Assembly (NCBI GenBank): GCA_963666055.2
Contig: CAXWPH010000015.1
Span: 2,144,001 to 2,208,000, forward strand
From: Acidobacteriota bacterium
GTDB taxonomy: Bacteria; Acidobacteriota; UBA890; WLXD01
Length of the DNA: 64,000 nucleotides
Direction: 5' to 3'
The notes below the pieces were generated by a model. The model was not told the origin of the DNA and did no database searches. It saw only the letters and a list, made by a program, of their open reading frames with translations. Shown in pieces: positions 7,807 through 46,233 of this stretch (position 1 is its first letter; each line of letters starts with the position of its first letter). The translations under genes were made by a program, and so were the position numbers.

Positions 7807-9626
7807 ATGAACATCCTCGGGATCTCGGCTTTCTACCACGACTCGGCGGCGTGCTTGGTGCGCGACGACACCATCGTGGCGGCGGCCCAGGAAGAACGCT
7901 TCACGCGCAAGAAACACGACTTCCGTTTTCCCGCCCACGCCATCGAGTACTGTCTGAGGGCCGGCGATATCGACGCGTCGGATCTCGACACGGTCGCCTT
8001 CTATGACAAGCCGTGGGCCAAGTTCGAGCGTCTGCTGGAGACCTACCTGGCATTCGCTCCGCAGGGCCTCAACTCGTTTCTGAAGGCCATGCCGCTCTGG
8101 CTCAAGCAGAAGCTCTGGATAGGGGAGCTGATAGCCAGGGAGACGGGTTTCGAAGGCGACATGCTCTACCCGGAGCATCACCAATCACACGCCGCCTCGG
8201 CGTTTTTTCCCTCGCCTTTCGAATCGGCTGCGATCCTCACGATGGATGGGTAGGCGAGTGGGCGACCGCCTCGTGGGGTGCTGGGGTGGACAACAGCATC
8301 GAGCTTGCCGCCGAGCTCAGGTTCCCGCACAGCCTGGGCCTGCTGTACACCGCGTTCACCTACTACACCGGCTTTCGCGTGAACTCCGGTGAGTACAAGG
8401 TCATGGGCCTCGCACCCTACGGCGAGCCCAAGTACGTAGGCCTGATCCTCGATGAGTTGATGGACCTGCGTGAAGACGGTTCCTTCCGGCTCGACATGAA
8501 GTACTTCAACTACTGTCAGGGGCTGACCATGACCTCGGAGGCGTTCCACGAGCTATTCGGCGCCCCTCCCCGGCAGCCCGAGAGTGAGCTTACTCAGCGC
8601 GAGATGGACCTGGCGCGGTCGATCCAGGAGGTTTGCGAGGAGGTGATGCTGCGGATGGCTAGGCACGTCCGCACCCAGACTGGTGAGCGTAATCTGGTTA
8701 TGGCCGGTGGCGTGGCTCTGAACTGCGTCGGTAACGGCAAGATCCTGCGAGCCGGTATCTTCGACGATGTCTGGATCCAGCCTGCGGCAGGCGACGCCGG
8801 CGGCGCCTTGGGCGCGGCGCTCTTCGCAGCCCACCAGGTTCACGCCGTGCCGCGCTACACCGCTGCCAATGGACGCGACCTCCAGAGCGGGTCCTACCTG
8901 GGGCCGTCGTGGAGCGGTGACGAGATCGAACAGTGGCTTCTCGAGCAGCGTTACCCCTACGAGCGTCATACCGAGGAGACCATCCCCGATGTCACCGCCG
9001 ACTTGTTGTCGACGGGAAATGTGGTGGGCTGGTTCAGCGGACGCATGGAGTTCGGTCCGCGGGCGTTGGGCGCGCGAAGCATTATCGGAGACTCACGCGA
9101 TCGACAGATGCAGCGCAAGCTCAACCTGAAGATCAAGTATCGCGAATCGTTTCGACCCTTCGCACCCAGCTGTCTGGTCGAGGACGTGTCGGAGTACTTC
9201 GACCTCGATCGGCCATCGCCCTACATGTTGTTGGTTGCCCCGGTGCGAGAGGAGCGTCGGGTGGCGATGACCGAGGAGCAGACGCAGCTGTTTGGGATCA
9301 GCAAGTTGAACGTACCGCGTTCCGACATTCCGGCGGTAACCCACATCGACTACTCTGCCCGCGTGCAGACGGTCGACGCACGCGATCATGCGCAATACCA
9401 CCGGCTTATCGAAGCGTTCAAGGAGCGCACCGGCTACGGCATTATTGTCAACACGTCGTTCAACGTTCGCGGCGAGCCGATCGTTTGCACGCCCGCGGAT
9501 GCTTATCTCTGTTTCATGCGCACGGAAATGGACGTGCTGGTGCTGCAAGATTGCATTCTGATGAAGTCCGACCAGCCGCCTCTCGGTGACGACGTCGACT
9601 GGCGCGACCTTTACGAGCTGGATTAG
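7807..9626 (+). CDS. O-carbamoyltransferase, NodU/CmcH/SxtI family; frameshifted near 8250
   Basis: ILGISAFYHDSAA, QEERFTRKKHD, EHHQSHAASAF in one frame; GEWAT, NSGEYKVMGLAPYG, GGVALNC, EFGPRALGARS, NTSFNVRGEP in the other; one extra G at ATGGATGGG-TAGGC restores MDGVGEW. Confidence 0.9.
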
Positions 9627-9680
9627 CAGGGCAAGTTCCACCACGGCCTGCTCGCGTCCCGCACGGAGCACCCACGAATC

Positions 9681-10085
9681 GTGGCCTTGAAGAAGCAGCA
9701 AACTGACGCGCAGCGGCTGCCCAAATTCGGAATCGTGATGGCGGTGGCATTTGCGCTGCTGGCGTCGTTGCTGTTGTGGAGAGAGCGGCCGGCGGGCCCG
9801 TATCTGCTCTACGTGAGCGCGGCGTTCCTTGTTGCCGCACTGATCCTGCCGCCGGTTCTGGCACCGATCGAGCGTGTCTGGATGGCGTTGGCGCGCCTTC
9901 TACAGGTTGTCATGACGACGCTGATCTTGACGCTGACGTTCTTCGTTGTGATGACCCCGATGGGCTTCTTGCTGCGGCTGTCAGGAAAGGACCTCCTGGA
10001 CATGCGACGAGATCCCGATGCTGAGAGTTACTGGGTTCCGGTGGATCCGGACGGCCCCGTGTCGCGCCCCGATAAGCCCTATTGA
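9681..10085 (+). CDS. SxtJ-family membrane protein
   Basis: KFG..., WM.LA..L..V.T.LIL...FF.V.TP.G...R..GKD.L...SYW pattern; follows the carbamoyltransferase. Confidence 0.8.
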   Translation: MALKKQQTDAQRLPKFGIVMAVAFALLASLLLWRERPAGPYLLYVSAAFLVAALILPPVLAPIERVWMALARLLQVVMTTLILTLTFFVVMTPMGFLLRLSGKDLLDMRRDPDAESYWVPVDPDGPVSRPDKPY

Positions 10086-10163
10086 GGCCTCACCGCGAAA
10101 GCCGCGGGCGATACTGATATTCTCCGTGACGAGTCGCAGGACGTTGGAGCAGGAGGTGCAGAG

Positions 10164-10313
10164 ATGTCGAGGCTAGGGCTCGTCTGGGGTTTTCTGAGAT
10201 CCCGCAAGAAGTGGTGGCTGACGCCCATCGTGGTGTTCCTCGTGTTGCTCGGCTTGTTGATCGTGCTCTCGGAGGGCTCCGCCGTCGCCCCCTTCATTTA
10301 TGCGCTTTTCTAG
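10164..10313 (+). CDS. SxtK/DUF5989-family small membrane protein (49 aa, not in ORF track)
   Basis: Translates MSRLGLVWGFLRSRKKWWLTPIVVFLVLLGLLIVLSEGSAVAPFIYALF with SD AGGAGG; RKKWWL.P and SA.APFIY.LF are family hallmarks. Confidence 0.9.
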   Translation: MSRLGLVWGFLRSRKKWWLTPIVVFLVLLGLLIVLSEGSAVAPFIYALF

Positions 10314-10368: not shown

Positions 10369-11718
10369 TTGCCGCAGGAGCTCAGCACCGAGCGCTCGTT
10401 ACCCCACAACGTGGAGGTAGAGCGCTCCATCCTCGGCGCCGTGCTGCTGGACAATCAGGCGTTTAACGCCGCCGCCCAGACCATCTCTCCTGAGGATTTC
10501 TTCGGTGATGCCAACCGGCTGATCTACGAGGCCATGACCTGGCTATCGGAACGCTCCGAAGCCATCGATACGGTGACCCTGCGCGAGGAACTAGCACGGC
10601 GTGACGTGCTGGAGCGGGCTGGCGGAGCGGCATATATCTCTAGCCTGATCGATGGGTTGCCGGCGGCGGCCAACGTCGATCAGTACGCGCGTATTATCAA
10701 GGACAAGGCGGCGCTCCGGAGTCTCATCGGGGCGTCCAACTCCATCATCCGCATGGCGCTGGAGGGCGCCATCGAGACCGACGATTTGCTCGATCGCGCT
10801 GAGCACTCGATCTTCGCGATCAGCGAGAGCAACATCCGGCGCGGGTTCCTCTCCGTTCGCGACGTCGCTTTCGACGCCATGAAGGAGATCGAGGAGCTGA
10901 TGGAGCGCGGTGACTATGTCACCGGCGTGCCGACGGGTTTCAAGCGACTCGACGCCTTGACCGCCGGTTTGCACCCGGGCGACCTGGTGATCCTGGCGGG
11001 GCGCCCGTCGATGGGCAAGACGTCCTTGGCGCTCAATGTCGCCCAACACGTAGCGCTCGAGGTAGGCGGCACCGTCGGGGTGTTCTCGCTCGAGATGTCC
11101 GTCCAGCAGGTTGTCCGCCGGCTGGTCACCGCCGTCGCCCAGGTGGATGCTCACAAGCTCGCGACCGGGTTCTTGTCGAGCGGCGACAAGGACCGGTTAC
11201 TCGACGGCCTGCACAAGCTGTCCGAGACCAAGATCTTCATCGATGACTCCGCCTCCCTCACGGCGCTCGAGATGCGTGCCAAGGCGCGCCGACTGAAGGC
11301 AGAACACGGCCTCGATTTACTAATCGTCGACTACTTGCAGCTGGTTCGCGGTAGCACCCGTACCGATAACCGCAACCTCGAGCTGGGAGAGATATCACGC
11401 TCGCTCAAGGCGCTCGCCAAGGAGCTGCAGGTGCCCGTGCTGGCACTTTCGCAGCTCTCGCGTGCCACCGAGACACGGTCGGGCCACCGCCCGCAGCTGT
11501 CGGACTTGCGCGAATCCGGCAACCTGGAGCAAGACGCTGACGTGGTGGCGTTTATCTTCCGCCCCGAGGTGTACAACCAGGAGGATCCGGAGCTCGAGGG
11601 TCTCGCCGAGCTGATCATCGCCAAGCAGCGGAACGGTCCGACCGGCAGCGTTCCGCTCGCCTTCCTGAAGCCCTACACGCTCTTCAAGGATCGCGCCGAC
11701 GTCGAGGGTGCCTTCTGA
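10369..11718 (+). CDS. dnaB: Replicative DNA helicase
   Basis: LPHNVEVERSILG, GRPSMGKT, FSLEMS, VDYLQL, LSQLSR, SDLRESGNLEQDAD, KQRNGPTG; no intein. Confidence 0.98.
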   Translation: MPQELSTERSLPHNVEVERSILGAVLLDNQAFNAAAQTISPEDFFGDANRLIYEAMTWLSERSEAIDTVTLREELARRDVLERAGGAAYISSLIDGLPAAANVDQYARIIKDKAALRSLIGASNSIIRMALEGAIETDDLLDRAEHSIFAISESNIRRGFLSVRDVAFDAMKEIEELMERGDYVTGVPTGFKRLDALTAGLHPGDLVILAGRPSMGKTSLALNVAQHVALEVGGTVGVFSLEMSVQQVVRRLVTAVAQVDAHKLATGFLSSGDKDRLLDGLHKLSETKIFIDDSASLTALEMRAKARRLKAEHGLDLLIVDYLQLVRGSTRTDNRNLELGEISRSLKALAKELQVPVLALSQLSRATETRSGHRPQLSDLRESGNLEQDADVVAFIFRPEVYNQEDPELEGLAELIIAKQRNGPTGSVPLAFLKPYTLFKDRADVEGAF

Positions 11719-11775
11719 TCGGTGCGTCGTTGAGCGCGCAGCTAACATAGGCGCATGCGCGAAGCTTCTTCGGCG

Positions 11776-13110
11776 ATGCCAAGCTCCTGCCGACCGACCG
11801 TGGCGGAGATCGATCTCGGCGCCTGTGTGCACAACCTGCGGCGCCTACGTGACAAGGTGGGCGCCATCGATGTCTGGCCTGTGGTCAAGGCCGACGCGTA
11901 CGGACATGGAGCCGTGGCTGTAGCCAAGGCTCTCTGCGCCGAACGCGTAACCGGGTTGTGCGTGGCGACCGCGAGCGAAGGTCGTCAGCTGCGGCAAGCG
12001 GGCATCGAAGTGCCTGTTCTGGTGATGGCCGGGCTCGCCCTTTCAGCAACGGAAGACGCCTTTCGATTGGTCGTGGAGTATGGCCTCGCGGCCGGTATCC
12101 AGGCCGCTACCGTCGGCGCTCGACTGTCGGATACGGCTCGAGAGCTCGGCATCGGGCCGGCCTCGGTCCATCTCAAGGTCGACACCGGTATGGGGCGGCT
12201 CGGCATCGTGCCGGATCAGGTCACCCACCTGGCGCGGGCGCTGGCCGACGAGCCGACGTTGTCGTTCGATGGGCTTTTTTCGAACCTTGCGAGCAGCGAC
12301 AGCTTCGCCGACGATGATCCAGGAACGGACTTCGTGCGTCAGCAGATCGACATCTTCGATCAGGTTTGCGCCGTGCTCGAACAGGACGACATACTGCCGG
12401 TGCATCGCACCCTGGCGAATAGCGCTGGCCTGATGCACCACGCGGAGTCATGGCGTGGTCCGACGTTTACCGGAGTACGACCGGGCCTGGCAATTTACGG
12501 AGCCTCCCTCAACCCGGGAAAGGGCATTGGCGGCCTACGCCCGGCGATGCGGCTGGTAACCGGCATCATGGCGATCCGCGACCTTCCGAAGGGGGTCACG
12601 GTGGGATACGGGATGACCGCGACCACCTATAAAGCCACTCGGGTGGCAGCGTTGCCCCTCGGGTACCATGACGGCCTTCCGCGCGCCCTGGGCAACCGTG
12701 GCTGGGTTTCGATAGGCGGCCGTCGGGCTCCGATCATCGGCAGAGTCAGCATGGACCTCACCCTCGTCGATGTCACCGATGTGCCGGCGGCGCGGGTCGG
12801 CGACGAAGTCGTCGTGTTCGGCAACACCGAGCCCTTGGCGGGCTCCCCCAGCGAGGCCGAGGCCGAATCGACGGGCTATTCCGACACCCTGTCGATCGCA
12901 GTCGCGGCTGCCGATGGGGACGCCGACGAGGGCCCCGTCGAGGCGCAGACTGCCGCCACGGAAACTGCCAGGCAGGCGTGCATCAGCGTCGAGGAAGTTT
13001 CGGAATGGGCGGAGACCATCCCGCACGAGATTCTCAGCCGTATCGGCTCTAGAGTGCCGCGACGCTACTCGACATCTGCCGGCAACGATGCCGCCGAGGT
13101 GCTGCGATGA
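11776..13110 (+). CDS. alr: Alanine racemase (with acidic insertion near the C-terminus)
   Basis: VVKADAYGHG, HLKVDTGMGRLG, ANSAG, VRPG, GYHDG, GRVSMD; start could be 11755. Confidence 0.95.
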   Translation: MPSSCRPTVAEIDLGACVHNLRRLRDKVGAIDVWPVVKADAYGHGAVAVAKALCAERVTGLCVATASEGRQLRQAGIEVPVLVMAGLALSATEDAFRLVVEYGLAAGIQAATVGARLSDTARELGIGPASVHLKVDTGMGRLGIVPDQVTHLARALADEPTLSFDGLFSNLASSDSFADDDPGTDFVRQQIDIFDQVCAVLEQDDILPVHRTLANSAGLMHHAESWRGPTFTGVRPGLAIYGASLNPGKGIGGLRPAMRLVTGIMAIRDLPKGVTVGYGMTATTYKATRVAALPLGYHDGLPRALGNRGWVSIGGRRAPIIGRVSMDLTLVDVTDVPAARVGDEVVVFGNTEPLAGSPSEAEAESTGYSDTLSIAVAAADGDADEGPVEAQTAATETARQACISVEEVSEWAETIPHEILSRIGSRVPRRYSTSAGNDAAEVLR

Positions 13111-13892
13111 GCCGATTGGTGGCCGGCATCGGCCGGTTCGCAATCGGATCCCTCGAATCGGCGGGGGAGGCGTCGCTGCTGCTATGGCGTTCGCTCGCTA
13201 GCCTGACTCGTCGACCGTGGTACCTGCGCAATTGGTTCGAGCAGATGGTCGAGCTCGGCAATCGCTCCTTGCCGGTCATCGTCGTCACTGCGGTGTTCTC
13301 GGGTGCGGTGTTCGCCCTGCAGATCTGGGAAGGCTTCGAGCAGTTCGGTGCTACGACGCTGGTTGCTTTCTCGGTTGCCTTGGCGATGACGCGCGAGCTC
13401 ATCCCGGTGCTGGGCTCATTGATGGTCGCCGGCCGTGCCGGTGCCGCGATGGCGGCGGAGATTGGCACGATGCGCGTCACGGAGCAGATCGACGCGATGG
13501 AAGCTATGGCGACCGACCCGGTGAAGTACCTCGTCGTGCCGCGCGTTGTCGCGGGGGCGGTGATGTTGCCGGTGGTCGTGGTGATCGGCGACCTGTTGGG
13601 CATCTTGGGTGGCTACGTGGTCTCCGTGTATATGAACGACGCGCGGCCGGTCGCCTACTGGGATGCCAGCTTCGCCTTCATGACCGTCGACGATGTCGTC
13701 TCTGGGCTGATCAAAGCGTCGATCTTCGGCGTCATGATCGCCATTTTTTCCTGCATGCGCGGCTTCGGCGCCAGCGGCGGAGCCAAGGGTGTCGGCAAGG
13801 CTACCACCAGCGCCGTCGTGACCAGCAGTATGGCGATCTTGATCTCCGACTTCTTTCTCACCAAAGCGCTGCTCGTTCTGTGGGACATGTGA
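13107..13892 (+). CDS. mlaE: MlaE-family lipid ABC transporter permease
   Basis: RELIPVL..LMVAGRAGAAMAAEIGTMRVTEQIDAME, GAKGVGKATTSAVV. Confidence 0.93.
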   Translation: MSRLVAGIGRFAIGSLESAGEASLLLWRSLASLTRRPWYLRNWFEQMVELGNRSLPVIVVTAVFSGAVFALQIWEGFEQFGATTLVAFSVALAMTRELIPVLGSLMVAGRAGAAMAAEIGTMRVTEQIDAMEAMATDPVKYLVVPRVVAGAVMLPVVVVIGDLLGILGGYVVSVYMNDARPVAYWDASFAFMTVDDVVSGLIKASIFGVMIAIFSCMRGFGASGGAKGVGKATTSAVVTSSMAILISDFFLTKALLVLWDM

Positions 13893-14650
13893 CCGAACAG
13901 TCATTCATCCGTATCAGCGATCTGCATAAGAGCTTCGGCGACCTGCACGTATTGCGCGGTGTCGATCTCGACGTTGCCCGCGGCGAATCGCTGGTGATTA
14001 TCGGCAGCTCGGGTACGGGCAAGAGCGTGCTGATCAAGCACGTGATCGGTTTGCTGACACCCGATCAGGGCGACTTGGTGGTCGATGGGTCGTCGGTTCC
14101 CGGGCTCGGGCGTGATGCTCTCTCCAGGCTCCGCCGACGCATGGGCATGCTCTTTCAGTACGCCGCACTGTTTGACTCCATGAACGTCGGCGACAACGTT
14201 GCCTTCGCGCTACGTCAACAACGCGACTGGCCCGAAGCGCGCGTCCAGGAGCGGGTGCGCGAGGTGCTCCGCTGGGTGGGCCTAAGGGGCATCGAGGACA
14301 AGGTGCCCGCCGAGCTTTCCGGCGGCATGAAGAAGCGCGTCGGGCTGGCTCGGGCCATCGCGCTCGAGCCGGAGATCATTCTCTACGATGAGCCCACGAG
14401 CGGGCTCGACCCGATTCTTGCCGACCAGATCAACGATCTGATTCTCGATCTCAACACGCGTCTCAACGCGACTTCGCTGACCATCACGCACGACATGGTG
14501 TCGGCATACAAGATCGCCGATCGAATCGCGATGCTTTATGAGGGCAAGATCGAGGAAGCCGGCACTCCGCAGCAGATCCAGGCCAGCGACAACCCGGTCA
14601 TCCAACAGTTCATCAACGGGCGCGCCGACGGGCCCATCAAGATGATGTAG
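13889..14650 (+). CDS. mlaF: MlaF-family ABC ATPase
   Basis: GSSGTGKS, FQYAALFDSM, LSGGMKKRVGLARA, YDEPTSGLDP; GTG overlaps the mlaE stop. Confidence 0.93.
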   Translation: MTEQSFIRISDLHKSFGDLHVLRGVDLDVARGESLVIIGSSGTGKSVLIKHVIGLLTPDQGDLVVDGSSVPGLGRDALSRLRRRMGMLFQYAALFDSMNVGDNVAFALRQQRDWPEARVQERVREVLRWVGLRGIEDKVPAELSGGMKKRVGLARAIALEPEIILYDEPTSGLDPILADQINDLILDLNTRLNATSLTITHDMVSAYKIADRIAMLYEGKIEEAGTPQQIQASDNPVIQQFINGRADGPIKMM

Positions 14651-14680: not shown

Positions 14681-15253
14681 TCACAGCTTTCCGCGATAGT
14701 CGAAGTTCAGGCGGGCGGACGACAGTGGTGGCAGCTCCAGATCCTTGTCCGACAGGATCACGTCGTCGCGTGGGAACGGCCACTGAAGTCCCAGCGCCGG
14801 ATCGAAGGCGTTCACTCCGGCTTCCGATTCGGGGGCATACTCGGCTGTCTGCACGTAGAGGAAGTGGGTGTCGTCCTCGAGCGCGCAGAATCCGTGTGCG
14901 AACCCCGGCGGGATCCATAGCAGGCTTCGGTTTTCGGCGCTGAGCTCGATCGCGACGTGCTGGCCAAACCAGGGCGAACCGCGACGCACATCGAGGGCAA
15001 CGTCGAACACGGCGCCGCGCAACACTCGCACCAGTTTCCCCTGCCCTTTCGGCTCTAGCTGATAGTGCAGCCCGCGCAGCACCTTGGCCTCCGAGATGGA
15101 CTCGTTCACCTGTGCGACGCGAACGTCGGCTCCCCGCGCGGCAAGCGCGGAGTGCCTGAAAGTCTCCAGGAAGCCACCACGGTCATCGCGTAGCAGCTCC
15201 GACCGGATCAAGAGCACATCGGGAATGTCGGTCGCGGCGATTTCTAGGGGCAT
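14681..15253 (-). CDS. rfbC: dTDP-4-dehydrorhamnose 3,5-epimerase
   Basis: DDRGGFLETF, VLRGLHYQ, QGKLVRV..GAVFDVALDVRRGSPWFG, IPPGFAHGF, LSDKD. Confidence 0.95.
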   Translation of the reverse strand: MPLEIAATDIPDVLLIRSELLRDDRGGFLETFRHSALAARGADVRVAQVNESISEAKVLRGLHYQLEPKGQGKLVRVLRGAVFDVALDVRRGSPWFGQHVAIELSAENRSLLWIPPGFAHGFCALEDDTHFLYVQTAEYAPESEAGVNAFDPALGLQWPFPRDDVILSDKDLELPPLSSARLNFDYRGKL

Positions 15254-17900: not shown

Positions 17901-17934
17901 AAAACTTGACTGTAATACAATCAGGTTTTATGAT
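17901..17934 (+). promoter_or_regulatory. Sigma70 promoter of hsp20 overlapped by a HAIR-like (HspR) inverted repeat
   Basis: TTGACT(17906)-17 nt-TATGAT(17929); AAAACTTGACT-N7-AATCAGGTTTT resembles CTTGAGT-N7-ACTCAAG. Confidence 0.7.
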
Positions 17935-18516: not shown

Positions 18517-18545
18517 CTGTCACCGGCGGATGCATCGGTTCCGCG

Positions 18546-35152: not shown

Positions 35153-35161
35153 GGCGATGGC

Positions 35162-36729: not shown

Positions 36730-37847
36730 TCGACTCCCGCAGATCACGTTGGTTGCGCTCGAGCTCCGAGGTCGGATCGTTGTCGATCGATCTAGGCCCG
36801 GGGTGGAACCTCGTCCGACCACAGCTCTTCGGGGTCATTCTGTTGCTGGCTGCCAACCTGGCGGTTTTCTTGGGAGTTACGTGGCCGCGCTGGAGCTCGA
36901 GCGCCGCAGTCGATACGGCGTCGCGCCAAGGCGTTGCCGCGCAGGCAGCGCTGGGGCCGTCACTGGAGCGTGCACGCCGCATCTACGGCCGCGTGCTGAA
37001 TGCCGAGTCAGGAGTCACGGAGCTTCGCGAACGTATCGGTGGCGGCGCGGTGTCGGAAGTCGTGTCGACGTTGCGAGCGGCAGTGGACGCTGCCGGCCTC
37101 GGCGCAGTCCGTATCGGTTATGCGGTGCAGCCGGTGCCAGAGCTCGGGCTGATGCAACTGCAGATCGACCTGCCGCTACGCGGCAGCTACCGGCAGCTAC
37201 GTCGGTTTCTCGACGAGGTGTTGGCCGGCCCGATGTTCGTGGTGCTCGAGCGCATCGGCGCGTCAACGCCCTCGCTAAACGATCCAACTGGGCAGCTCTT
37301 ACTGTCGACGACAGCCTCGGTATTTGTGCGAGCCGCCGACGATAGTGCGGAACCGTCGGTCGTCACCGCCTCGCCGATCGAGATAGATGATCCGCTGGCG
37401 CTGGCGAGCTCGCTGGCAGCGCGTCTGCAGGCCTTACCGACCATCCCGGTGTCGGCAGAGGAGCTCGAGCTGCGATTGGAGCAACTAGATACGCCGTTGC
37501 CCGCCAAGACCCAGACGCGCCGGAACCTCTTCGCGTTTCCGCTACAGGTGACGGTGGCCGAGCTCGGTCCGGAGGAAGCCCTCGCGGCGCTCGCCGAACA
37601 GTTCATTCCTGATCCGGTGACCCCGTATCAGCTCATCGGCGTCACGCGTACCCGCGATGGGTTGCTGGCAACGCTCACCGGTGACGATCGGGTGTTGCTG
37701 GTGCGCCACGGCGAGCTGCTGCCGGATGGCTATCGCGTCGCCCACGTCGATCTTACCAGCGTGGAGCTGGAAGCAGGCAATGAAACCACGCGGCTGTCGC
37801 TGCGAAGAGACGAGAACCCCGGAGAGTTAACGGAGCGAGACCGATGA
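36726..37847 (+). CDS. PilO-like domain fused to a PilP/GspC-like domain
   Basis: TM plus LPLRGSYRQLRRFL (PilO); C-terminal RRNLF...YQLIGV...V..GE....YRV..V (PilP/GspC HR-like). Confidence 0.6.
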   Translation: MIDSRRSRWLRSSSEVGSLSIDLGPGWNLVRPQLFGVILLLAANLAVFLGVTWPRWSSSAAVDTASRQGVAAQAALGPSLERARRIYGRVLNAESGVTELRERIGGGAVSEVVSTLRAAVDAAGLGAVRIGYAVQPVPELGLMQLQIDLPLRGSYRQLRRFLDEVLAGPMFVVLERIGASTPSLNDPTGQLLLSTTASVFVRAADDSAEPSVVTASPIEIDDPLALASSLAARLQALPTIPVSAEELELRLEQLDTPLPAKTQTRRNLFAFPLQVTVAELGPEEALAALAEQFIPDPVTPYQLIGVTRTRDGLLATLTGDDRVLLVRHGELLPDGYRVAHVDLTSVELEAGNETTRLSLRRDENPGELTERDR

Positions 37848-40036
37848 GCTTGAAAGAACACGTGGTCATACCCAGGGATCGGCGGCACCATCTGGCGGCG
37901 ATTATCTGCGTCCTCGTCCTCCTGGTAGGGGCGACAGCATGCGCCAGTGGAAGCAGCCCGCTGAACCGAGCCGACGCGCACGCCCGCATCGGCGAGTGGG
38001 ACACGGCCATCGTCTACTACCAGCGGGTGCTCAAGAACGATCCCGGTAACCGCACGGCACGTTCGAAGCTGCTGCTGGCGCAGACCAATGCCTCGCAGTT
38101 CCATCGCGTTCAAGGGAAGGCGCTGGCCGAGGGCGGAGATCTGCAGCGCGCACAGCTCGAGCTCGAGCTTGCCGTGCGGCTGGATCGCACCAATCAAGCT
38201 GCGGTTGTCGAGCTGCGCAAGGTGAGCGAGGCGGTGGAAGCAGAGCGGCTCAGTCGCGACGAGCAACGGACGGCCATCGAACGGGCGGTCGACGCATCGA
38301 TGGATGCCCCTGCGCCATTACCCGAGCTCGAGCACCACGCCATCGGCCGAATGTCATTCGACTATCGCCGCGCCAGGATCAAAGACATCTACCGTGCTAT
38401 GGGCCGTCTGGGCGGTATCAACATGCTGTTCGACAGAGACGTCGACAACCCCAACACATCGTTCTTTCTCGCCGACGTCACGTACGAGCGCGCGCTCGAG
38501 ATTCTGACCGCGGCGCACGGCCACTTCTACCGGGTGATGGCGGCCAATACGATCCTTATCGCCGAAGATACGCAGCAGAAGCGGCGGCAGTACGAGCCAC
38601 AGGTGATGCGAACGTTCTATCTCTCAAATGGCGACGCGGAACAGATCGCCAGCACGTTGCAGACCATTCTCGGAGCGCGCCAGGTCATGCCCACGCCGAC
38701 GCTCAACGCCGTCACGATCCGAGACTCCGCGGAGTTGGTCGAGGTCGCCGAGCGGTTGATCAAGTCGCTTGACAAAGCTGGCGGCGAAGTGCTGCTCAAC
38801 GTGGAGATTTTCGAGGTCAACCGGTCGGTGATGGACGACTATGGCCTGTCGCTGCAGCCGGACTATTCAACCACCGCGTCGATTGGCCAGACGGAAGCCG
38901 GCATCTCGTTGGCCGATCTGGGGAGCCTCACCACTCAGAACGCCTTTCTCACGATCCCGTCGTTGCGCTATCAGTTCATGAAGCAGGACTCGTCGTTCCG
39001 GCTCATCGCGCAACCGCAGCTGCGAGCCTCCGACGGCCAGATATCGTCGCTGCTGGTCGGCGAGCAACGGCCGATTATCAGCACCACGTTCAACCCCACG
39101 AGTACCGTAGGCGGCAATGTGGTTCCGATCTCCTCCACGGAGTACCGCGATGTCGGCATCGTTATCGATGCCACGCCGCGCGTCCATCATGACGGCACGA
39201 TCACGCTGCAGCTCGTGCTCCAGGTGACGGCGGTGCAGGAGGGGAGCGGCGCCCTGGAACAGCCCGTGTTCACTGCGCGCACGTTGACGACGACGTTGCG
39301 CCTGATGGAGGGCGAGACCAACCTGTTGGCCGGGCTGCTCCGCGACGACGAGCGCACTGTGTACACAGGCCTGCCGATCCTGTCCGAGATTCCGGTGCTC
39401 AAGCATCTCTTTGGCAGCACCTCGAAGACTGTTCTGCAGACCGACATCGTGATGTCGATCACGCCGTATATCGTGCGCATGGCCGATATCACCGAGGCCG
39501 ACCTCGCAGCGGTTTACGTCGGCACCGAGGATGCGATCAGCGGCGGCGGAGGCCGACGCGGCGGCCGAAGTCGGTCAGGTCAAGACGAAGACAGTGATTT
39601 CGAGGCCGGCGATGCCGATCCGATTCTCGTCAGCCTGATGCCCGCTGATCAGAACGCCCAGGTGGGCCAGACGCTGAGCGTCGATGTCATGACGGACGGC
39701 GACGCCGATATCAACAACGTCGGGCTGCGGGTGAACTGGAACCCACAGGTGCTGCAATTTGTGGAAGCCAGGGAGGGTAACCTCCTGAGCTCCGACGGCT
39801 CGGAGACCACCTTCTCGAGCAGCGCGGCCACTCAGGGCACGGTGGCGATCGGGATTGGACGCGTCGGGCAAGTGGGTGGAATACGGGCTCGCGGCGTGCT
39901 TGCGACCCTCAATTTCCGCGTTGTCGGCGCGGGTCAGACGCCGGTACAGATCATCTCGGCGGCGCTACGCGACTCTGAGGGGCGTCCGCTGCCCGTGGCG
40001 TTCCGGGCCGCTGCGGTCGAGGTGCAGGAGGATTGA
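37844..40036 (+). CDS. Secretin (GspD/PilQ family) with N-terminal TPR and C-terminal cohesin-like domain
   Basis: Lipoprotein-like signal (GATAC), TPR helices, RTFYLSN, PQLRASDG, YRDVG..ATPRVH, GETNLLAGL, GLPILSEIPVLKHLF; beta-sandwich tail G.LA.L.F. Confidence 0.9.
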   Translation: MSLKEHVVIPRDRRHHLAAIICVLVLLVGATACASGSSPLNRADAHARIGEWDTAIVYYQRVLKNDPGNRTARSKLLLAQTNASQFHRVQGKALAEGGDLQRAQLELELAVRLDRTNQAAVVELRKVSEAVEAERLSRDEQRTAIERAVDASMDAPAPLPELEHHAIGRMSFDYRRARIKDIYRAMGRLGGINMLFDRDVDNPNTSFFLADVTYERALEILTAAHGHFYRVMAANTILIAEDTQQKRRQYEPQVMRTFYLSNGDAEQIASTLQTILGARQVMPTPTLNAVTIRDSAELVEVAERLIKSLDKAGGEVLLNVEIFEVNRSVMDDYGLSLQPDYSTTASIGQTEAGISLADLGSLTTQNAFLTIPSLRYQFMKQDSSFRLIAQPQLRASDGQISSLLVGEQRPIISTTFNPTSTVGGNVVPISSTEYRDVGIVIDATPRVHHDGTITLQLVLQVTAVQEGSGALEQPVFTARTLTTTLRLMEGETNLLAGLLRDDERTVYTGLPILSEIPVLKHLFGSTSKTVLQTDIVMSITPYIVRMADITEADLAAVYVGTEDAISGGGGRRGGRSRSGQDEDSDFEAGDADPILVSLMPADQNAQVGQTLSVDVMTDGDADINNVGLRVNWNPQVLQFVEAREGNLLSSDGSETTFSSSAATQGTVAIGIGRVGQVGGIRARGVLATLNFRVVGAGQTPVQIISAALRDSEGRPLPVAFRAAAVEVQED

Positions 40037-40040
40037 CGTG

Positions 40041-40991
40041 ATGTGCCGCCACCCTCGAGTGCGGGCGAGTGCAATCGGCGGGTTTACGCTCATCGAGATG
40101 GTGATCGTGGTAGCCATCGTCGGCATTCTTGCGTCGGCGGCGCTGCCGCTCGCACGCTGGACCGTGAAACGCAATCGGGAGTTCGAGCTGCAACAGAGCC
40201 TGCGCATCCTGCGCAACGCCATCGACCAGTATCGTGATGCGGCGGCCGCCGGCCTCATTCAGGTGGACGAGGGGAACACCGGCTATCCGCCGAGTCTGGA
40301 CCAGTTGCTCGAAGGCGTGCCGCTGCTCGGTCAGATGCCTCCGCTGGCGCCGGCGGTCTCCGATGCGTATACCGCTACCGGCCCCGGCCTGACCGGCGGC
40401 ATCCAGGGGCAGCTGGACAACTCGCAGGGCCAGGGCGCCAGCCAGGGCCTGCCCGGATCGCAGGGTCAATCGACTGGTTTTGGCACTATCCAGCCACAGC
40501 AGCAGTCCAGTGGCGGGTTCGGCTCGTTGAGTCGTCCCGGCAACCAGCGACCGGCCACCGGACCGGGGCGCGGGCCGTTCGGCCAACCACAGACAGCTGG
40601 CGGGTCGGGGCTGCAGCTCGGGGGTCGGGCCCCGGCGTCGACAGGCGGGCTGGTGATGCAGGGTCAGCGACCGGGGTCGACGGCGTTCGTACCGGGCGGC
40701 AACCCGTTTGGAGGTCAACAGGCAGGGGGAGGCCGGTCCGGTCTGCTCGGTGGGGTGGGCCAAACGCAGGCCGCTCAGCAGCAATCGCTGCTCGGGCCCG
40801 ATGGCCAGCCGGTCAAGCTGGTCTTCCTACGACGGCTGCCGGTGGACCCGTTCACCGGTACGGCGGAGTGGGCCTTGCGTTGCTACGGTGAGCCGCCCGA
40901 CGACCGCCTGTGGTGCGGCAAGGACGTGTTCGATGTTTACTCCAAGAGCCTCGCGCAGGCGATCGATGGCACCCGGTACCGCGACTGGTGA
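40041..40991 (+). CDS. Pseudopilin (GspG-like) with large Gly/Gln-rich insertion
   Basis: GFTLIEM class III signal, RE.EL...LR.AID.Y, GYPPSLD.L.EGV, FLRRLPVDP, DVFDVYSKS...DGT.Y.DW. Confidence 0.88.
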   Translation: MCRHPRVRASAIGGFTLIEMVIVVAIVGILASAALPLARWTVKRNREFELQQSLRILRNAIDQYRDAAAAGLIQVDEGNTGYPPSLDQLLEGVPLLGQMPPLAPAVSDAYTATGPGLTGGIQGQLDNSQGQGASQGLPGSQGQSTGFGTIQPQQQSSGGFGSLSRPGNQRPATGPGRGPFGQPQTAGGSGLQLGGRAPASTGGLVMQGQRPGSTAFVPGGNPFGGQQAGGGRSGLLGGVGQTQAAQQQSLLGPDGQPVKLVFLRRLPVDPFTGTAEWALRCYGEPPDDRLWCGKDVFDVYSKSLAQAIDGTRYRDW

Positions 40992-41025: not shown

Positions 41026-42084
41026 ATGCGACCAACCGTAGAGACCAACGTTGTCCAGATAGTCGGACCACGCCAGGTCCGGATCGAGAGCGACACACTG
41101 ATCCTCGAGGGCATGGGGCAGCGTGAAGTAGCTGCCGAGACCCTCTACACGGCGATCTCGCCCGGCACCGAGCTTGCTGCGTACGAGGGCCTGCAGCCGC
41201 TGCGACCCGATCGCAAGTTCACCAAGGTGGTTGGCTACTGCAACCTGGCGCGGGTGATTGCCGTCGGTGATTGGGTAACGCGTTTCCGCGTGGGTGATCT
41301 GATCTTGACCTTGCAGTCGCACCGAAGCCACTTTGTCTGCGATGACGACGAGATCCTGCTGCGCCTGCCGTATCGCGACTACGACGAGCAACAGCTGGCT
41401 GAGGCGGCGACGACGTATCTGTTCCATCAGGGATACAGCGCGCTGCTGCGCGGAGACCTGAAGCCGGGCCAGTACGTCGCCGTCGTTGGACTAGGTACTC
41501 TCGGCTTGGCGACCGTCGCCGTAGCAAGTCGATTTGGTGCCCGCGTGTTCGCCTTCAGCGACCTTCCATCGGCGGGAATCGCACTCGACGTCGGTGCTCG
41601 AATCCTGTTCGGCAAGTCGCACGATGACGACACCAAGGGGCGCATCGCCTCCAGCACCGCCAACACCGGCATCGACATAGTGGTCCTCACGAGCAGCAGC
41701 TGGGACGACCTGCGACTGGCAATCGAGCTCGTCCGGCCCGGGGGACGCATTTGCTTGTTGGGCTTCCCGGGGCGGCGCCATCCGACGCCGCCATTCAACC
41801 CGCTGGATCCGCAGTGGTTCTATCGCAAGCAGCTGAGCTTGATCTCGTGTGGTTACACGCCCGATGTCGAGATCGACCCGCGCGATATTCGCTTCACCAT
41901 ACGCCGCAATGCGGCGTACCTTCTGGAGCTGATTCTCGACGGTAGCCTGCCGGCGCACGAGCTCGTCTCGACGGTGGCGCCGTGGCATCGAATCGGCGAG
42001 ATCTATGAGCGCATCGCGGCGCGCGAGGAGGGCCTACGCACTGCCGTGCTGAAATGGTTCGGCGAGGACGCTGTCGATGGGTGA
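41026..42084 (+). CDS. MDR-family (zinc-binding dehydrogenase fold) oxidoreductase lacking canonical Zn ligands
   Basis: ISPGTE and VGYC replace the usual C..D/GHE; GLGTLG Rossmann motif. Confidence 0.8.
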   Translation: MRPTVETNVVQIVGPRQVRIESDTLILEGMGQREVAAETLYTAISPGTELAAYEGLQPLRPDRKFTKVVGYCNLARVIAVGDWVTRFRVGDLILTLQSHRSHFVCDDDEILLRLPYRDYDEQQLAEAATTYLFHQGYSALLRGDLKPGQYVAVVGLGTLGLATVAVASRFGARVFAFSDLPSAGIALDVGARILFGKSHDDDTKGRIASSTANTGIDIVVLTSSSWDDLRLAIELVRPGGRICLLGFPGRRHPTPPFNPLDPQWFYRKQLSLISCGYTPDVEIDPRDIRFTIRRNAAYLLELILDGSLPAHELVSTVAPWHRIGEIYERIAAREEGLRTAVLKWFGEDAVDG

Positions 42085-42508
42085 GTTGCGTACGCTTTTC
42101 GGACGGTGCCGCGATCGCAGGCGAGGCGCACCCGGCTTCTCGTTGCTCGAGCTCATCGTCGTGATGGCAGTGCTCGGTATTCTGGTCGTGTATGCCCTCC
42201 CGGCCTACCAAGACGCGGTGTTGCGCGCCCGCGAGGCTGTGCTCAAGGAGGATCTTCAACGCTTGCGCGACAGCGTCGAACAGTACCTCACCGACAAGGG
42301 TGCGTATCCGGAGGCGCTGGATGACCTGGTGCGCGACGGTTACCTACGTAGCCTGCCCGTGGATCCGCTCACCGGCTCGGACGACACCTGGGAAACCGAG
42401 GTCGCCCCGTGGATGATGATCGATCAGGGGCAGCCTGCCGGAATCTGGAACGTCTTTTCGGGCGCCGACGGGGATGGTCTCAACGGCGTTCCATACAGGG
42501 AGTGGTAG
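42077..42508 (+). CDS. Pseudopilin (GspG-like)
   Basis: GFSLLEL, REAVLKEDL..LR...QY..DKG.YP..LDDLV..GYLR.LPVDP. Confidence 0.9.
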   Translation: MGELRTLFGRCRDRRRGAPGFSLLELIVVMAVLGILVVYALPAYQDAVLRAREAVLKEDLQRLRDSVEQYLTDKGAYPEALDDLVRDGYLRSLPVDPLTGSDDTWETEVAPWMMIDQGQPAGIWNVFSGADGDGLNGVPYREW

Positions 42509-42511
42509 CTG

Positions 42512-43183
42512 ATGCAGCAACCTGACGGTGGCGGCGAATCCGGCTACACGCTCGTTGGCTTGATGGTGGTGGTGGCGGTGATCAACGTGTCGCTCGCCGT
42601 CGCGGTGACGTCGACGCGTACCCTCGGGCGCCGGGCACGCGAGGCCGAGCTCATATGGCGCGGCGAGCAGATCGCACGGGCTGTCGGGTGCTATGAGCAA
42701 GCCAGCACCGGACAGCCGTTGACCAGGTTCGAACAATTGGTGGAAGCGGATTGTCTGCGGCGGTTGTACCGCGACCCGATGGTGAGCGACGGTCAGTGGC
42801 GCATCCTCCGCCAACAGGATGTTGCTGACGGGACGATCGCGGCGCTACTCGGCGCCGTGGTGGACGACGCCGGCGTCGCACCGAGCCTCGCTTCGAGTGC
42901 GGCGACGATAGGACAGGGGTCGACCGTGGGTCCGGGCGCGGGCACTTCGCGGTTTCCGCGGCGGTCCACTTCGCGGTTGGCCGGCGCTGGGGCCGGAGGC
43001 GAGAACACAATCGTCGGCGTCGTCTCGCGCTCCGTAGAGACATCGCTGCGCGTCTACGGCGACAAGACGAAGTATAGCCAGTGGGTGTTTCTCGGCGGCC
43101 AGGCGATCGCGGCCGGCGCTCGTGCACCCCGCGGCGGTGGCGTGCAAGCCGCTTCCGGTCAGGGCCTGACTCCCCGACGCTAG
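42512..43183 (+). CDS. Pseudopilin-like T2SS protein (non-E5)
   Basis: GYTLVGL prepilin site, REAELIWRG, LRRLYRDP, IVGVVS.S, YSQWVF. Confidence 0.8.
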   Translation: MQQPDGGGESGYTLVGLMVVVAVINVSLAVAVTSTRTLGRRAREAELIWRGEQIARAVGCYEQASTGQPLTRFEQLVEADCLRRLYRDPMVSDGQWRILRQQDVADGTIAALLGAVVDDAGVAPSLASSAATIGQGSTVGPGAGTSRFPRRSTSRLAGAGAGGENTIVGVVSRSVETSLRVYGDKTKYSQWVFLGGQAIAAGARAPRGGGVQAASGQGLTPRR

Positions 43184-43241
43184 CGCACGGCGCATTCTAC
43201 TGTCAGCCAAGCGAGGGCCCTGCAACCGAGCCCTGGGCGAC

Positions 43242-43270
43242 TTGAAACGGCCAAGGGGGGCACTTACTAT
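43242..43270 (+). promoter_or_regulatory. Putative sigma70 promoter for pilB
   Basis: TTGAAA-17 nt-TACTAT at the start of an AT-rich intergenic patch. Confidence 0.6.
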
Positions 43271-43465
43271 CTTTCTTTATCTTTTAGTGATCATCTTTAT
43301 GCTTTGATTCGCATAGTAATCCTGAGTAGTCTCATTATGACGTTTTCAAGTTTCTAGCGATTCGTACGGGAACGCCCGCCGGCCGTCTATCAAGTGGCAG
43401 GGGTCATTCCCTTCAGAGCCGTTTCTGGAGTCAACTTGGCGGCAAAGAAGCAGCGCACGTTGGAC

Positions 43466-45226
43466 ATGGGCAGCAGAGCGACCGCGGGTCGCAAGGCGGC
43501 CAGTGCGACCATTCGACTTGGCCGCATCGTCGTCGAGTCGGGGTTGGTTTCGGAAGCCGACCTCGAGCGCGCCCTACAGATGCAGACGGAGACCGGCGAG
43601 CGACTCGGCAACATCCTCGTAGTGCTGGAGCTGCTGAGCGAGGAAGATCTCATCGATCTGCTGTCGCGACAGTTCGGCGTTCCTGCCGCCGACCTCCAGA
43701 ACCTGGACGTATCGAGCACCGTTTTGAGCCTCGTGCCACTGGAGATGGCGAAACGCTATCTCGCAGTTCCAGTAGCAGCCGACTCACGGAACCTTAGTCT
43801 GGCGATGGTTGATCCCACTGACGTGGTGGCGATCGATGACATCGAGTTCGCGACTGGCCTGCGGGTCCAGCCGATGGTCGCCTCCGATCACGCCGTGAGC
43901 GACGCCATAGGCGCTCTCTACGGCGATCATGCCGACGCCAGGATGCGTCAGATGATGACGGACCTCGAGGAAGAGATCCGCAACCCCGGCGACTTGGAGA
44001 TCGTCGAGGAAGAGGACGAGATCGATCTTGCGGCGCTCTCGAAGGCGAGCGGCGACGCACCAGTCATCAAGCTCGTTAACCTACTGCTCACTGACGCGCT
44101 GCGCCGCGAGGCGTCCGACGTCCACATCGAGCCATACGAAAAGCGGCTGCGCGTCCGCTACCGGATCGATGGCTTGCTCTACGAGATCATGGAGCCTCCC
44201 AAGCACATGCAACTGGCGATCGCCTCGCGCATCAAGATCATGTCTGAGCTCGACATCTCCGAGCGTCGCCGACCGCAGGACGGGCGCATCAAGATCCGCG
44301 TCAAGCTTGATGACCGCCTGCGGGAGCTCGACCTGCGGGTATCGACGCTTCCGACGATCTGGGGCGAGAAGATCGTCATGCGCTTGCTCGACCCCGAGGC
44401 ACTGAAGCTCGACCTCGCCGATCTCGGCTTCGAGAAGGCATCGTTGGAGCGCTTCGAGCAATCGATACGACTTCCGTTCGGCATCGTGCTGGTTACCGGG
44501 CCAACCGGCTCAGGCAAGACCAACACGTTGTACTCGGCGCTCTCGACCGTCAACAACACTGACACCAACATCATGACCGCAGAGGATCCGGTCGAGTTCA
44601 ACCTCGAGGGGATCAACCAGGTGCAAATAAACGAGGCGGTGGGACTGACGTTCCCCATGGCGCTGAAGGCGTTCCTACGCCAGGATCCCAACACGATCCT
44701 GGTGGGTGAGATTCGCGACGCCGAGACTGCGAATATTGCCATCAAGGCTGCGCTGACCGGACATCTCGTGCTCTCGACCCTGCATACCAACGATGCTCCT
44801 TCGACGATCAACCGGATGGTCGACATGGGCGTGGAGCGTTTTCTGGTGTCGTCGTCGGTGCAACTGGTGGTGGCGCAGCGGTTGATCCGTCGGTTGTGCA
44901 AGAAGTGCCGGGAGGTGTCCACTCCGGATCCTGAGGCGCTGGTCGAGATCGGCCTGTCGCCGGAGGAAGCGATGGCCGTAACCGTCTTCCACCCGGTTGG
45001 CTGCGACCTCTGCCTCGGAACAGGCTACAAGGGTCGCATCGCCCTGTTCGAGGTGATGCGGATCAGCGCCAGGCTGCGTGAGATGATTGTCAACGGCGCG
45101 ACCAACGAGGAGATCAGAGCCGAGGCGCGAAGCGCCGGGATGATCACGTTGCGCGAGAGTGGATTGGTGAAGATCTGGCAGGGTATAACTTCGATCGAAG
45201 AAGTGTTGAGGGAGACAACGCTGTGA
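43466..45226 (+). CDS. pilB: Type IV pilus assembly ATPase
   Basis: RLG.I.V N-terminal domain, APVIKLVN, ASDVHIEP, GPTGSGKT, RQDP..ILVGEIRD, TGHLVLSTLHTNDAP, CxxC pairs; start uncertain (43394-43466). Confidence 0.93.
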   Translation: MGSRATAGRKAASATIRLGRIVVESGLVSEADLERALQMQTETGERLGNILVVLELLSEEDLIDLLSRQFGVPAADLQNLDVSSTVLSLVPLEMAKRYLAVPVAADSRNLSLAMVDPTDVVAIDDIEFATGLRVQPMVASDHAVSDAIGALYGDHADARMRQMMTDLEEEIRNPGDLEIVEEEDEIDLAALSKASGDAPVIKLVNLLLTDALRREASDVHIEPYEKRLRVRYRIDGLLYEIMEPPKHMQLAIASRIKIMSELDISERRRPQDGRIKIRVKLDDRLRELDLRVSTLPTIWGEKIVMRLLDPEALKLDLADLGFEKASLERFEQSIRLPFGIVLVTGPTGSGKTNTLYSALSTVNNTDTNIMTAEDPVEFNLEGINQVQINEAVGLTFPMALKAFLRQDPNTILVGEIRDAETANIAIKAALTGHLVLSTLHTNDAPSTINRMVDMGVERFLVSSSVQLVVAQRLIRRLCKKCREVSTPDPEALVEIGLSPEEAMAVTVFHPVGCDLCLGTGYKGRIALFEVMRISARLREMIVNGATNEEIRAEARSAGMITLRESGLVKIWQGITSIEEVLRETTL

Positions 45227-46233
45227 AGTACGTAGTGACCGGTGGCGCCGGCTTCATCGGATCGCATCTGACCGAGGCTTTGCTGCGGCGTGGCCACGAC
45301 GTTGTCGTCATCGACAATTTGTTCTCCGGGACTCGCGACAACCTTGACGAGGCGCGTGACTCGGCCGGCGAGCATGCCGGCAATCTGACTCTACTGACCG
45401 CCGATATCCTCGACGAGACAGCCATCCATATGGCGCTCGACGGCGCCGAGGCAGTTTTCCACCAGGCTGCGATCGCTTCCGTGCCGCGTTCGTTCGACGA
45501 TCCGGCGTCGACGCTTCGAGTCAATATCGAGGGCACCGCAATGTTGCTCGAGGCGTGCCGGAAGCTAGCGGTGGGCCAGGTCGTAATGGCCAGCTCATCG
45601 TCGGTGTACGGCGACTCGTTGGCCCTGCCGAAGCACGAGGACATGCCCTTGGCGCCGCTCTCTCCTTATGCTTTAAGCAAGGCGGTCGGGGAGGAGTTGC
45701 TGGCGATCTGGGCGCGGCGATACGGTACCCGCACGGTGGCTCTGCGCTACTTCAATATTTTCGGGCCACGTCAGGACTCAGCCTCCGATTACGCTGCCGT
45801 CGTCCCCAAGTTCATCCTGCGCATGCTCGACGGCTTGTCGCCCATCATCTACGGCGACGGTCGCCAGTCGCGCGACTTCACCTTCGTGGAGAACGCGGTA
45901 GACGCCAATTTGTTGGCGGCCGGCATCGATCATGCTGACCACAGCGAGCCCGCTGCAAGCGGTCGCAATACCGTGGTCAACATCGGGGTGGGCGAGCGCT
46001 ATTCTCTGCTGGAGCTCGTCGAGGCTCTCAATGCGATCCTCGGCACCTCGCTGGAGCCCGAGTTCGCGCCTGCTCGCGTGGGCGAAGTGCGCGATTCGCA
46101 GGCAACCATCGAGCACGCCCAGCATGCCATCGGTTATGTGCCCCGAGTCGGCTTTGGCGTTGGCCTCGAGCGCACGGTGACCTGGTATCTGGAGCGCTTC
46201 CAGGTTCGCGCCCCGGTCACACGGGCCGGCTGA
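45223..46233 (+). CDS. NAD-dependent nucleotide-sugar epimerase (WbpP-like UDP-GlcNAc C4-epimerase)
   Basis: TGGAGFIGSH, HQAAIASVPRS, SSSSVYG, SPYALSK, LRYFNIFGPRQD, YAAVVPKF, GDGRQSRDF. Confidence 0.9.
   Translation: MKYVVTGGAGFIGSHLTEALLRRGHDVVVIDNLFSGTRDNLDEARDSAGEHAGNLTLLTADILDETAIHMALDGAEAVFHQAAIASVPRSFDDPASTLRVNIEGTAMLLEACRKLAVGQVVMASSSSVYGDSLALPKHEDMPLAPLSPYALSKAVGEELLAIWARRYGTRTVALRYFNIFGPRQDSASDYAAVVPKFILRMLDGLSPIIYGDGRQSRDFTFVENAVDANLLAAGIDHADHSEPAASGRNTVVNIGVGERYSLLELVEALNAILGTSLEPEFAPARVGEVRDSQATIEHAQHAIGYVPRVGFGVGLERTVTWYLERFQVRAPVTRAG

Follow-up and report, generated by a model that had tools for sequence, protein, structure and literature searches.

Why do genes of sugar-precursor synthesis lie singly or in small groups between core genes such as rplI and dnaB, mlaF and mlaD, or pilB and pilT? 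We addressed this question for a 64,000-nt stretch of an Acidobacteriota genome (hereafter the window; assembly GCA_963666055.2, contig CAXWPH010000015.1, positions 2,144,001 to 2,208,000; GTDB lineage UBA890, WLXD01). The source genome (G000) is 5.7 Mb with a GC content of 64%. A same-strand block of 44 genes, prs to purB, nearly fills the window and is kept order-wide. This backbone includes lolB-like, prs, rplY, pth, H+-PPase, rpsF-rpsR-rplI, dnaB, alr, mlaE/F/D and hsp20, as well as a PIN-domain gene, an extracytoplasmic function (ECF) sigma factor, a secretion/pilus cluster, pilB/T/C/S/R, pilin, ABC genes, prepilin peptidase, M16 peptidase and purB (backbone names without a Pfam match were assigned from position). 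We suggest, with a probability of roughly 0.6, that the block is a fossil insertion hotspot with many slots: sugar-precursor genes entered its junctions in four nested waves and are likely what is left of larger, since eroded glycan islands.

Insertions at conserved junctions

Gene identities were obtained from Pfam and NCBIfam profile searches. The original prediction, made from the sequence alone, had described glycan-tailoring genes interleaved into conserved operons, and every gene that it named was confirmed at its place. The inserted genes, hereafter passengers, are as follows.

7807..10313, + strand: slot 1, trio between rplI and dnaB (Pfam): carbamoyltransferase 7807-9626, SxtJ-like gene 9681-10085, DUF5989 gene 10164-10313
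14681..15253, - strand: slot 2, rmlC between mlaF and mlaD, antisense; above the TIGR01221 cut-off
16878..17783, + strand: rmlD, its open reading frame (ORF) overlapping the mlaD stop; above the TIGR01214 cut-off; last gene before the promoter-like site of hsp20
18672..26489, + strand: slot 3, acyl block of eight genes (flippase-like, short-chain dehydrogenase/reductase (SDR), acyl carrier protein (ACP), acyl-CoA ligase, LuxE, LuxC, hexapeptide acyltransferase, family 2 glycosyltransferase (GT2))
28426..30598, + strand: slot 4, Gfo oxidoreductase and DegT aminotransferase between the ECF sigma gene and a 254-aa gene
30611..31231, - strand: DUF218 gene, antisense, in the ECF-partner slot; same slot in G005 and G006, not in G007
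41026..42084, + strand: slot 5, medium-chain dehydrogenase/reductase (MDR) between two N-methyl-motif pseudopilins, overlapping pseudopilin 2
45223..46233, + strand: NDP-sugar epimerase between pilB and pilT, with a 4-bp overlap with the pilB stop

The eight-gene block at 18672-26489, overlooked in the original prediction, is the largest insert. The 254-aa gene had been taken for the likely partner of the ECF sigma factor; the adjacency stands, but the gene has no Pfam match and is a putative anti-sigma factor by position.

To place these genes on a comparative footing, the region was read in 8 well-assembled relatives, together with small loci from ~30 more. We denote the family of the window f1, its sister family f2 and its genus g1 (including G000, G003 and G004); many f2 genomes are incomplete, and an absence means not found in those searched. 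rplI and dnaB are directly adjacent in G005 and in 10/11 f2 genomes with upstream sequence, the exception being G019, in which a GT2 gene precedes dnaB. mlaF-mlaD, hsp20-PIN, ECF-partner, the gspG1-gspG2 pseudopilins and rplI-dnaB are all adjacent in G011 and G012, and pilB-pilT is adjacent in 6/6 genomes of other families. Because these junctions are empty in the sister family or in other families, the sugar genes are true insertions into conserved adjacencies.

An assembly chimera as the origin of this order was ruled out by bridging contigs and by G003 and G004, whose gene order is identical to that of the window throughout. Single contigs of run X2 span positions 7001-42162 and 42139-47000. 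Contigs of 4 public runs, drawn from 2 studies and at most 3 samples, bridge the order; any one of these runs may be the source of the window. Two passengers are disrupted here. Both the window and the contigs of all 4 runs show a frameshift near 8250 in the carbamoyltransferase, which is intact in relatives; this would be strain-level loss or phase variation. luxE is broken by a 65-bp tandem duplication (22987-23051) that contigs of all 4 runs skip, and this duplication is probably an assembly artefact of the window.

Four layers of passengers and a split cassette

In a species tree built from 11 backbone proteins, (((g1,G006)93,G007)100,G005)100,f2 (support 93-100), the presence patterns of the passengers nest with the backbone in four layers. 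The first is order-wide and comprises rmlD after mlaD, which recurs in G005, G006, G007, G011 and G012 and whose gene tree separates f1 from f2, and the epimerase between pilB and pilT, found in f1 plus G011, G022 and G023. The second, the MDR, belongs to the level of the family (9/10 f1 genomes versus 0/15 in f2). The third spans three genera (g1, g3, g4) and comprises the trio between rplI and dnaB (8/9 f1 genomes with upstream sequence) and rmlC at slot 2, for which no match above 42% occurred in G005 and none was found in G011 or G012. The fourth, Gfo/DegT and the acyl block, is restricted to two genera, g1 and g3. The pattern is thus real and lineage-specific, an accumulation rather than one dispersed pathway.

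The trio also shows movement within the order. G005 carries an 80%-identical orthologue beside cyclophilin and menaquinone genes, G020 has the trio between pilB and pilT, and in G011 it lies in a glycan cluster; it is a mini-cassette that is resident but changes place. As in sxtI-sxtJ-sxtK (PMC2684587), a carbamoyltransferase is followed by an SxtJ-family gene and a small membrane gene. In contrast to that system, no further genes of the sxt cluster are adjacent, the G011 copy is part of a glycan cluster, and the carbamoyltransferase is frameshifted in this strain.

The original prediction went further and held that one surface-glycan pathway, from one donor, had been scattered gene by gene into these operons. 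This we regard as highly improbable. Neither a single age nor a single donor emerged for the passengers; rmlD is older than rmlC, and the four ages imply unrelated origins, which the prediction itself had named as evidence against it. The passengers also span different pathways, namely dTDP-rhamnose synthesis, a WbpP/TviC-like epimerase, a 3-aminosugar acyl cassette and carbamoylation. The dTDP-L-rhamnose pathway is complete over curated cut-offs, with rmlC and rmlD in the window and rmlA and rmlB ~95-100 kb upstream; among 5 genomes tested, rmlA passes its cut-off in G000, G006 and G007, exactly those with rmlC at slot 2, and not in G005 or G011. The top NCBIfam match of the epimerase is TviC, below cut-off. 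A full pathway set with transferases and export functions is not present in the window, in which no Wzx, Wzy, initiating transferase, oligosaccharyltransferase or family 4 glycosyltransferase (GT4) was found: it holds 0/24 GT4 and 1/19 GT2 matches of the genome, the rest lying outside, and ordinary glycan clusters with assembly and export genes sit elsewhere in the genome. What did survive of the idea is confined to one nine-gene cassette split in two, described below, whose halves share their distribution and which is contiguous in a relative; the other passengers belong to other layers.

The MDR also lacks a glycan context. A plasmid search gave no match, the 120 listed of its 427 homologues carry only generic names, and homologues of 35-38% identity occurred in 9/392 non-family genomes, with no glycan context at the 3/3 loci read. 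A glycan role for the MDR is therefore without support, though it may still be conceivable from one listed homologue that is a Gfo-MDR fusion and from a 29%-identical MDR in a glycan island of G007. Separately, 13 kb upstream of the window, a lone nucleotide-sugar dehydrogenase (L182:5569-6870; G000:C15:2129569-2130873) lies between a deoxynucleoside kinase gene and smpB; it may act together with the epimerase or with Gfo/DegT.

The split cassette comprises nine genes, Gfo-DegT-SDR-ACP-ligase-luxE-luxC-hexapeptide-GT2. In L203 (Holophagales, Acidobacteriota) it is contiguous and 54-63% identical to the window (Gfo 54%, DegT 60%). The order in the window, with the acyl half followed by PIN-ECF and then by Gfo-DegT, is a cyclic permutation of that in L203 with the strand kept, and both halves occur in g1 and g3 only. 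The cassette is split in two, and it is the only part of the locus that fits the idea of the original prediction. We presume from family knowledge, the matches being sub-threshold, that its predicted product is an N-acylated 3-aminosugar loaded on a polyprenyl carrier by the GT2 and the flippase-like gene. Most non-family loci among 23 luxC loci from GTDB lie in glycan clusters (Planctomycetota, others), usually with a distant DegT upstream. The hexapeptide acyltransferase (24886-25749, 287 aa) is rare: of 3192 candidates, no more than 22 reached E<=1e-50, and in a search for further intact cassettes it was found in 0/392 non-family genomes sampled.

The adjacent Gfo and DegT genes can be likened to WbpB/WbpE. 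They likewise resemble GnnA/GnnB, a UDP-GlcNAc 3-oxidase and transaminase whose location varies relative to lpx genes (PMC5644692), a precedent for sugar-precursor genes apart from their pathway; UDP-GlcNAc 3-dehydrogenase is the top NCBIfam match of the Gfo protein (171 bits, below the cut-off of 450). In contrast to GnnA/GnnB, this pair scores below the curated cut-off, lies outside the lpx region and is found in two genera only, together with an acyl cassette. ACP/LuxE/LuxC/acyl-CoA ligase/FabG sets are known from enterobacterial flagellin glycosylation islands (PMC4875605), where the same five enzyme families form one block beside an aminotransferase and an acyltransferase. Here they are not beside flagellin, are joined to Gfo/DegT, the 287-aa hexapeptide acyltransferase, GT2 and a flippase-like gene, and are split in two.

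The permuted order is as expected from a tandem duplication of PIN-ECF-cassette followed by loss of complementary halves, which probably occurred here; a local cut-and-paste may give the same order. Duplication followed by reciprocal gene loss is the process proposed under SNAP (selection during niche adaptation; Brandis and Hughes 2020, PMC7055797; Cao et al. 2022, PMC9016547). The likeness lies in an orientation-kept permutation of a once contiguous block without insertion sequence (IS) scars, acyl half-PIN-ECF-Gfo/DegT versus L203. Unlike in SNAP, no duplicate remnants were seen, and the process covers at most one slot.

Islands at the same junctions and control blocks

G006 carries a 38.6-kb capsule cluster after hsp20, between hsp20 and the flippase-like gene. 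In G007, 142 kb separate mlaF from rmlC, and the ~90 kb of this that were read are glycan- and transposase-rich at both ends; islands at window junctions in other lineages thus measure 39-142 kb. Other passengers also differ between lineages. These included a sulfotransferase between alr and mlaE and an unrelated DegT (32%) plus PglF between ECF and its partner in G005, a 2-oxoglutarate oxygenase between mlaE and mlaF in G007, in G011 a glycan cluster 5' of pilB whose last genes are other Gfo/DegT genes, and a Gfo gene after dnaB in G015. In no order member examined does the slot between pilB and pilT lack a glycan-type gene, although G020 has a different one. Among relatives, one and the same junction is thus found empty, with a single gene or with a whole island, and the reading of insertion followed by erosion is based on this.

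Surface-glycan islands would have inserted repeatedly among core genes, mostly at non-polar transcript ends. Deletions would then have stripped most island genes, keeping precursor and tailoring enzymes needed by glycan clusters elsewhere, and tandem duplication with reciprocal loss would probably have brought the nine-gene cassette into its cyclic permutation around PIN-ECF. The predicted products (dTDP-rhamnose, epimerised UDP-HexNAc(A) and an N-acylated 3-aminosugar on a lipid carrier) would feed different glycans, and the placement may give steady expression rather than form a dedicated pilus-glycan module.

O-antigen and capsule loci sit between fixed housekeeping genes. Hotspots of horizontal gene transfer flanked by core genes and free of mobile elements have been described (Oliveira et al. 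2017, PMC5635113), and the block resembles them in that the genes between its core genes vary, are often of surface-glycan type and have no integrase nearby; it also encodes type IV pilus genes. Different passengers and islands occupy the same conserved junctions across genera, whereas rapid turnover was not seen. In contrast to a single locus, at least 6 slots lie along one 60-kb block, their content is fixed within the genus, and they look fossil.

Given that 400 kb of G011 lack usable synteny to G000, five conserved superoperons (dcw, S10/rpoBC, atp/parAB, infB/rplS, nuo/tonB; 222 junctions shared with G011) served as controls for the 43 window junctions in place of a genome-wide junction census. 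ORFs <70 aa, the frameshift fragments C14_134 and C14_137, a tuf paralogue, rpmD and murG were left out of the count, the slot between lptD and htpX was left out of the 10 control inserts, and a 184-aa hexapeptide gene between hisS and birA in G011 was not scored as glycan. Insertion events in G000 numbered 5/43 in the window (4 glycan-type) versus 10/222 in the controls (3 glycan-type). The p-values for glycan inserts in G000 (p=0.015), for variable glycan slots over four genomes (6/43 versus 4/222, p=0.002) and for glycan slots filled in G005, G006 or G011 alone (4/43 versus 1/222, p=0.003) overstate the difference, because the window was picked post hoc, labels were set by hand and kin are non-independent. 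The comparison is suggestive of glycan enrichment in the window block.

An alternative is that gene order is scrambled whatever the gene class, the glycan bias of the window being a selection artefact. The near absence of synteny over 400 kb between G011 and G000 is consistent with this, as are the inserts in control blocks (guaA, an Mrp cluster, DAO, DoxX and unknowns) and a total insertion rate that differs only at p=0.08. However, independent lineages have again placed glycan genes in this backbone, and the S10-spc-alpha, rpoBC, infB-rplS and mraZ-ftsZ cores carry no glycan inserts. Such neutral shuffling is in our view improbable. The original prediction had named a genome equally shuffled for all gene classes as evidence against itself; gene order outside conserved blocks is indeed scrambled relative to G011, but the five control superoperons are far less affected by glycan inserts.

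Several points weigh against an eroded insertion hotspot, besides the overstated p-values. The total insertion rate (5/43 versus 10/222, p=0.08) and the glycan share of inserts (4/5 versus 3/10, p=0.12) separate window from controls less clearly, and glycan genes also flank control blocks (before mraZ and after uvrA, atpE and lpxB; dcw, atp, nuo and lpxB blocks). The islands of G006 and G007 could be later insertions rather than the ancestral state. The slots between mlaF and mlaD, between ECF and its partner and between the pseudopilins lie inside operons rather than at their ends. No slot turnover was seen within the genus, where G003 and G004 have identical order and G002 shows only a rearrangement, unlike active hotspots, although species rather than strains were compared. 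Direct traces of insertion or duplication events were not found, the intact cassette order comes from one record (L203), and 20 spacers held no duplicate-gene remnants at protein or DNA level; decay of duplicates is expected because the permutation predates the g1/g3 split.

Two side observations concern the control blocks. A second variable glycan slot lies between lptD and htpX-mraZ (G000:C6:161680-164307; L112, L133, L168), with nucleotidyltransferase, GDP-sugar dehydratase-like, GT2 and PMT genes that differ by genus. The Mrp-antiporter-like cluster (G000:C15:1949689-1957130) sits between the atp genes and bactofilin-parB and is elsewhere in G005.

Mobile elements could in principle have delivered the passengers: an IS/miniature inverted-repeat transposable element (MITE) family targeting CTAG at TAG stops would have carried cargo into the junctions and then decayed. 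G000 holds 89-90 near-full MITE copies, 79 of them at CTAG. A full copy with terminal inverted repeats lies at 57235-57511, right after the prepilin peptidase TAG stop, and short end-like pieces occur at 9636-9663, inside the trio, and at 60371-60398; these traces are recent. Between mlaF and rmlC, G002 has a full MITE and G003 an end-piece, and DUF772/DDE transposases occur in the ispE slot and in the G007 island. However, no IS ends or target duplications flanking passengers were found in the window, and no MITE end apart from the recent piece inside the trio, and this route leaves the glycan bias unexplained. TAG-stop targeting was examined and rejected, as 4 of the 7 slots have an upstream gene that stops with TAG and 2 have one that stops with CTAG, not above genome rates (p=0.23 and 0.30). 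Delivery by such elements is improbable. The original prediction had noticed no transposase or direct-repeat scars, which overlooked the MITE and its pieces and is correct for the flanks of the passengers, the piece in the trio aside.

Domestication and operon context

Whatever their route of entry, the passengers are fixed, ameliorated and partly stop-start coupled, in line with the original prediction that they had been domesticated. Against G002, 16 passengers and 31 backbone genes have median dN/dS of 0.17 and 0.15 and dS of 0.24 and 0.23, respectively. GC content at third codon positions (GC3; 0.775 versus 0.79, p=0.47) and the codon adaptation values (0.646 versus 0.645, p=0.92) give no sign of a recent foreign origin; since the passengers match the backbone, donors cannot be named from composition, and the codon-usage check proposed for a common donor gave no donor signal. 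The 4-bp overlap of pilB and the epimerase is present in 8/8 f1 genomes, with a gap of 51-86 bp in 3/3 f2 genomes, and the overlap of the MDR with pseudopilin 2 in 7/8 f1 genomes. These overlaps suggest co-transcription of the epimerase and the MDR with their host operons. rmlC and DUF218 are antisense and thus do not share the operon mRNA.

The backbone features around these genes are as follows.

7137..7718, + strand: rplI, 5' of slot 1 (Pfam L9 N/C)
10369..14650, + strand: dnaB-alr-mlaE-mlaF (Pfam, synteny)
15434..16900, + strand: mlaD (Pfam MlaD)
17906..18572, + strand: hsp20; promoter-like site of its own at 17906-17934, terminator-like hairpin at 18545-18572 (consensus matches only)
26592..28295, + strand: PIN-domain membrane gene and ECF sigma gene, the backbone pair now dividing the cassette
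31460..40991, + strand: putative anti-sigma gene, gspF, gspE, pilM/N/O-like genes, secretin, pseudopilin 1
42077..45226, + strand: pseudopilin 2, pseudopilin-like gene, pilB; promoter-like site 43242-43270
46410..46439, + strand: TTTACA-N18-TA..T promoter-like site before pilT
46486..48986, + strand: pilT-pilC

Promoter-scan counts were at chance level (3 found in 40 kb); the pilT site alone was checked for conservation and occurs in 10/11 genomes with this spacer. From this arrangement, the epimerase and rmlD are probably the last genes of their transcripts and harmless to the genes that follow.

Further differences along the backbone were recorded. In G002 (C6; L032, L079) the block is broken by a rearrangement between DegT and DUF218, its parts lying ~155 kb apart. 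From the junction of the lolB-like gene and tRNA-Gln (window 1336-1506), ispE is missing in all f1 genomes read, while it is present in G011 and G012, the rest of these genomes not having been searched; its slot in G007 holds a transposase. pilR (51341-52855) has an apparent frameshift after ~residue 389 relative to G003 and G004. In G007 (~133 aa) and G012 (~420 aa), dnaB is interrupted by an in-frame insertion that is probably an intein (L051, L059).

The overlaps raise the question of whether co-oriented passengers were retained for co-expression, supplying sugar donors to pilin or outer-membrane glycosylation. Besides the overlaps, this is favoured by the glycan-type gene that always fills the slot between pilB and pilT in order members examined, by the insertion of rmlC one gene from the older rmlD, and by the enzyme sets shared with flagellin glycosylation islands. 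Yet rmlC and DUF218 are antisense, the window holds no GT4, Wzx, Wzy, initiating transferase or oligosaccharyltransferase, the trio is found at four unrelated positions in the order and carries a frameshift here, and overlaps arise in any compacted operon. We therefore consider selected coupling unlikely, if less so than delivery by mobile elements or neutral shuffling. A bolder version is similarly doubtful. Here the superoperon would be a selected landing strip, on which lineages install their own precursor genes at fixed slots, above all between pilB and pilT, so that pilus and envelope building switches on matching sugar chemistry; an N-acylated 3-aminosugar pathway not described before, with its cassette split through duplication and loss, would be part of it.

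A literature search, with subscription journals outside its scope, found no published account of this pattern. An insertion hotspot that has since eroded remains our preferred reading, and the locus offers a dated, tree-ordered case of accessory glycan genes turning into fixed parts of core operons, in which empty, single-gene and whole-island junction states are all visible in living relatives. The nine-gene cassette is, in addition, a candidate for natural splitting through duplication and loss. With rmlA/B and rmlC/D ~100 kb apart, cluster-based glycan prediction misses pathways in this group. Finally, if placement is truly selected for pilus glycosylation, it would represent a new way to link surface chemistry to appendage expression.

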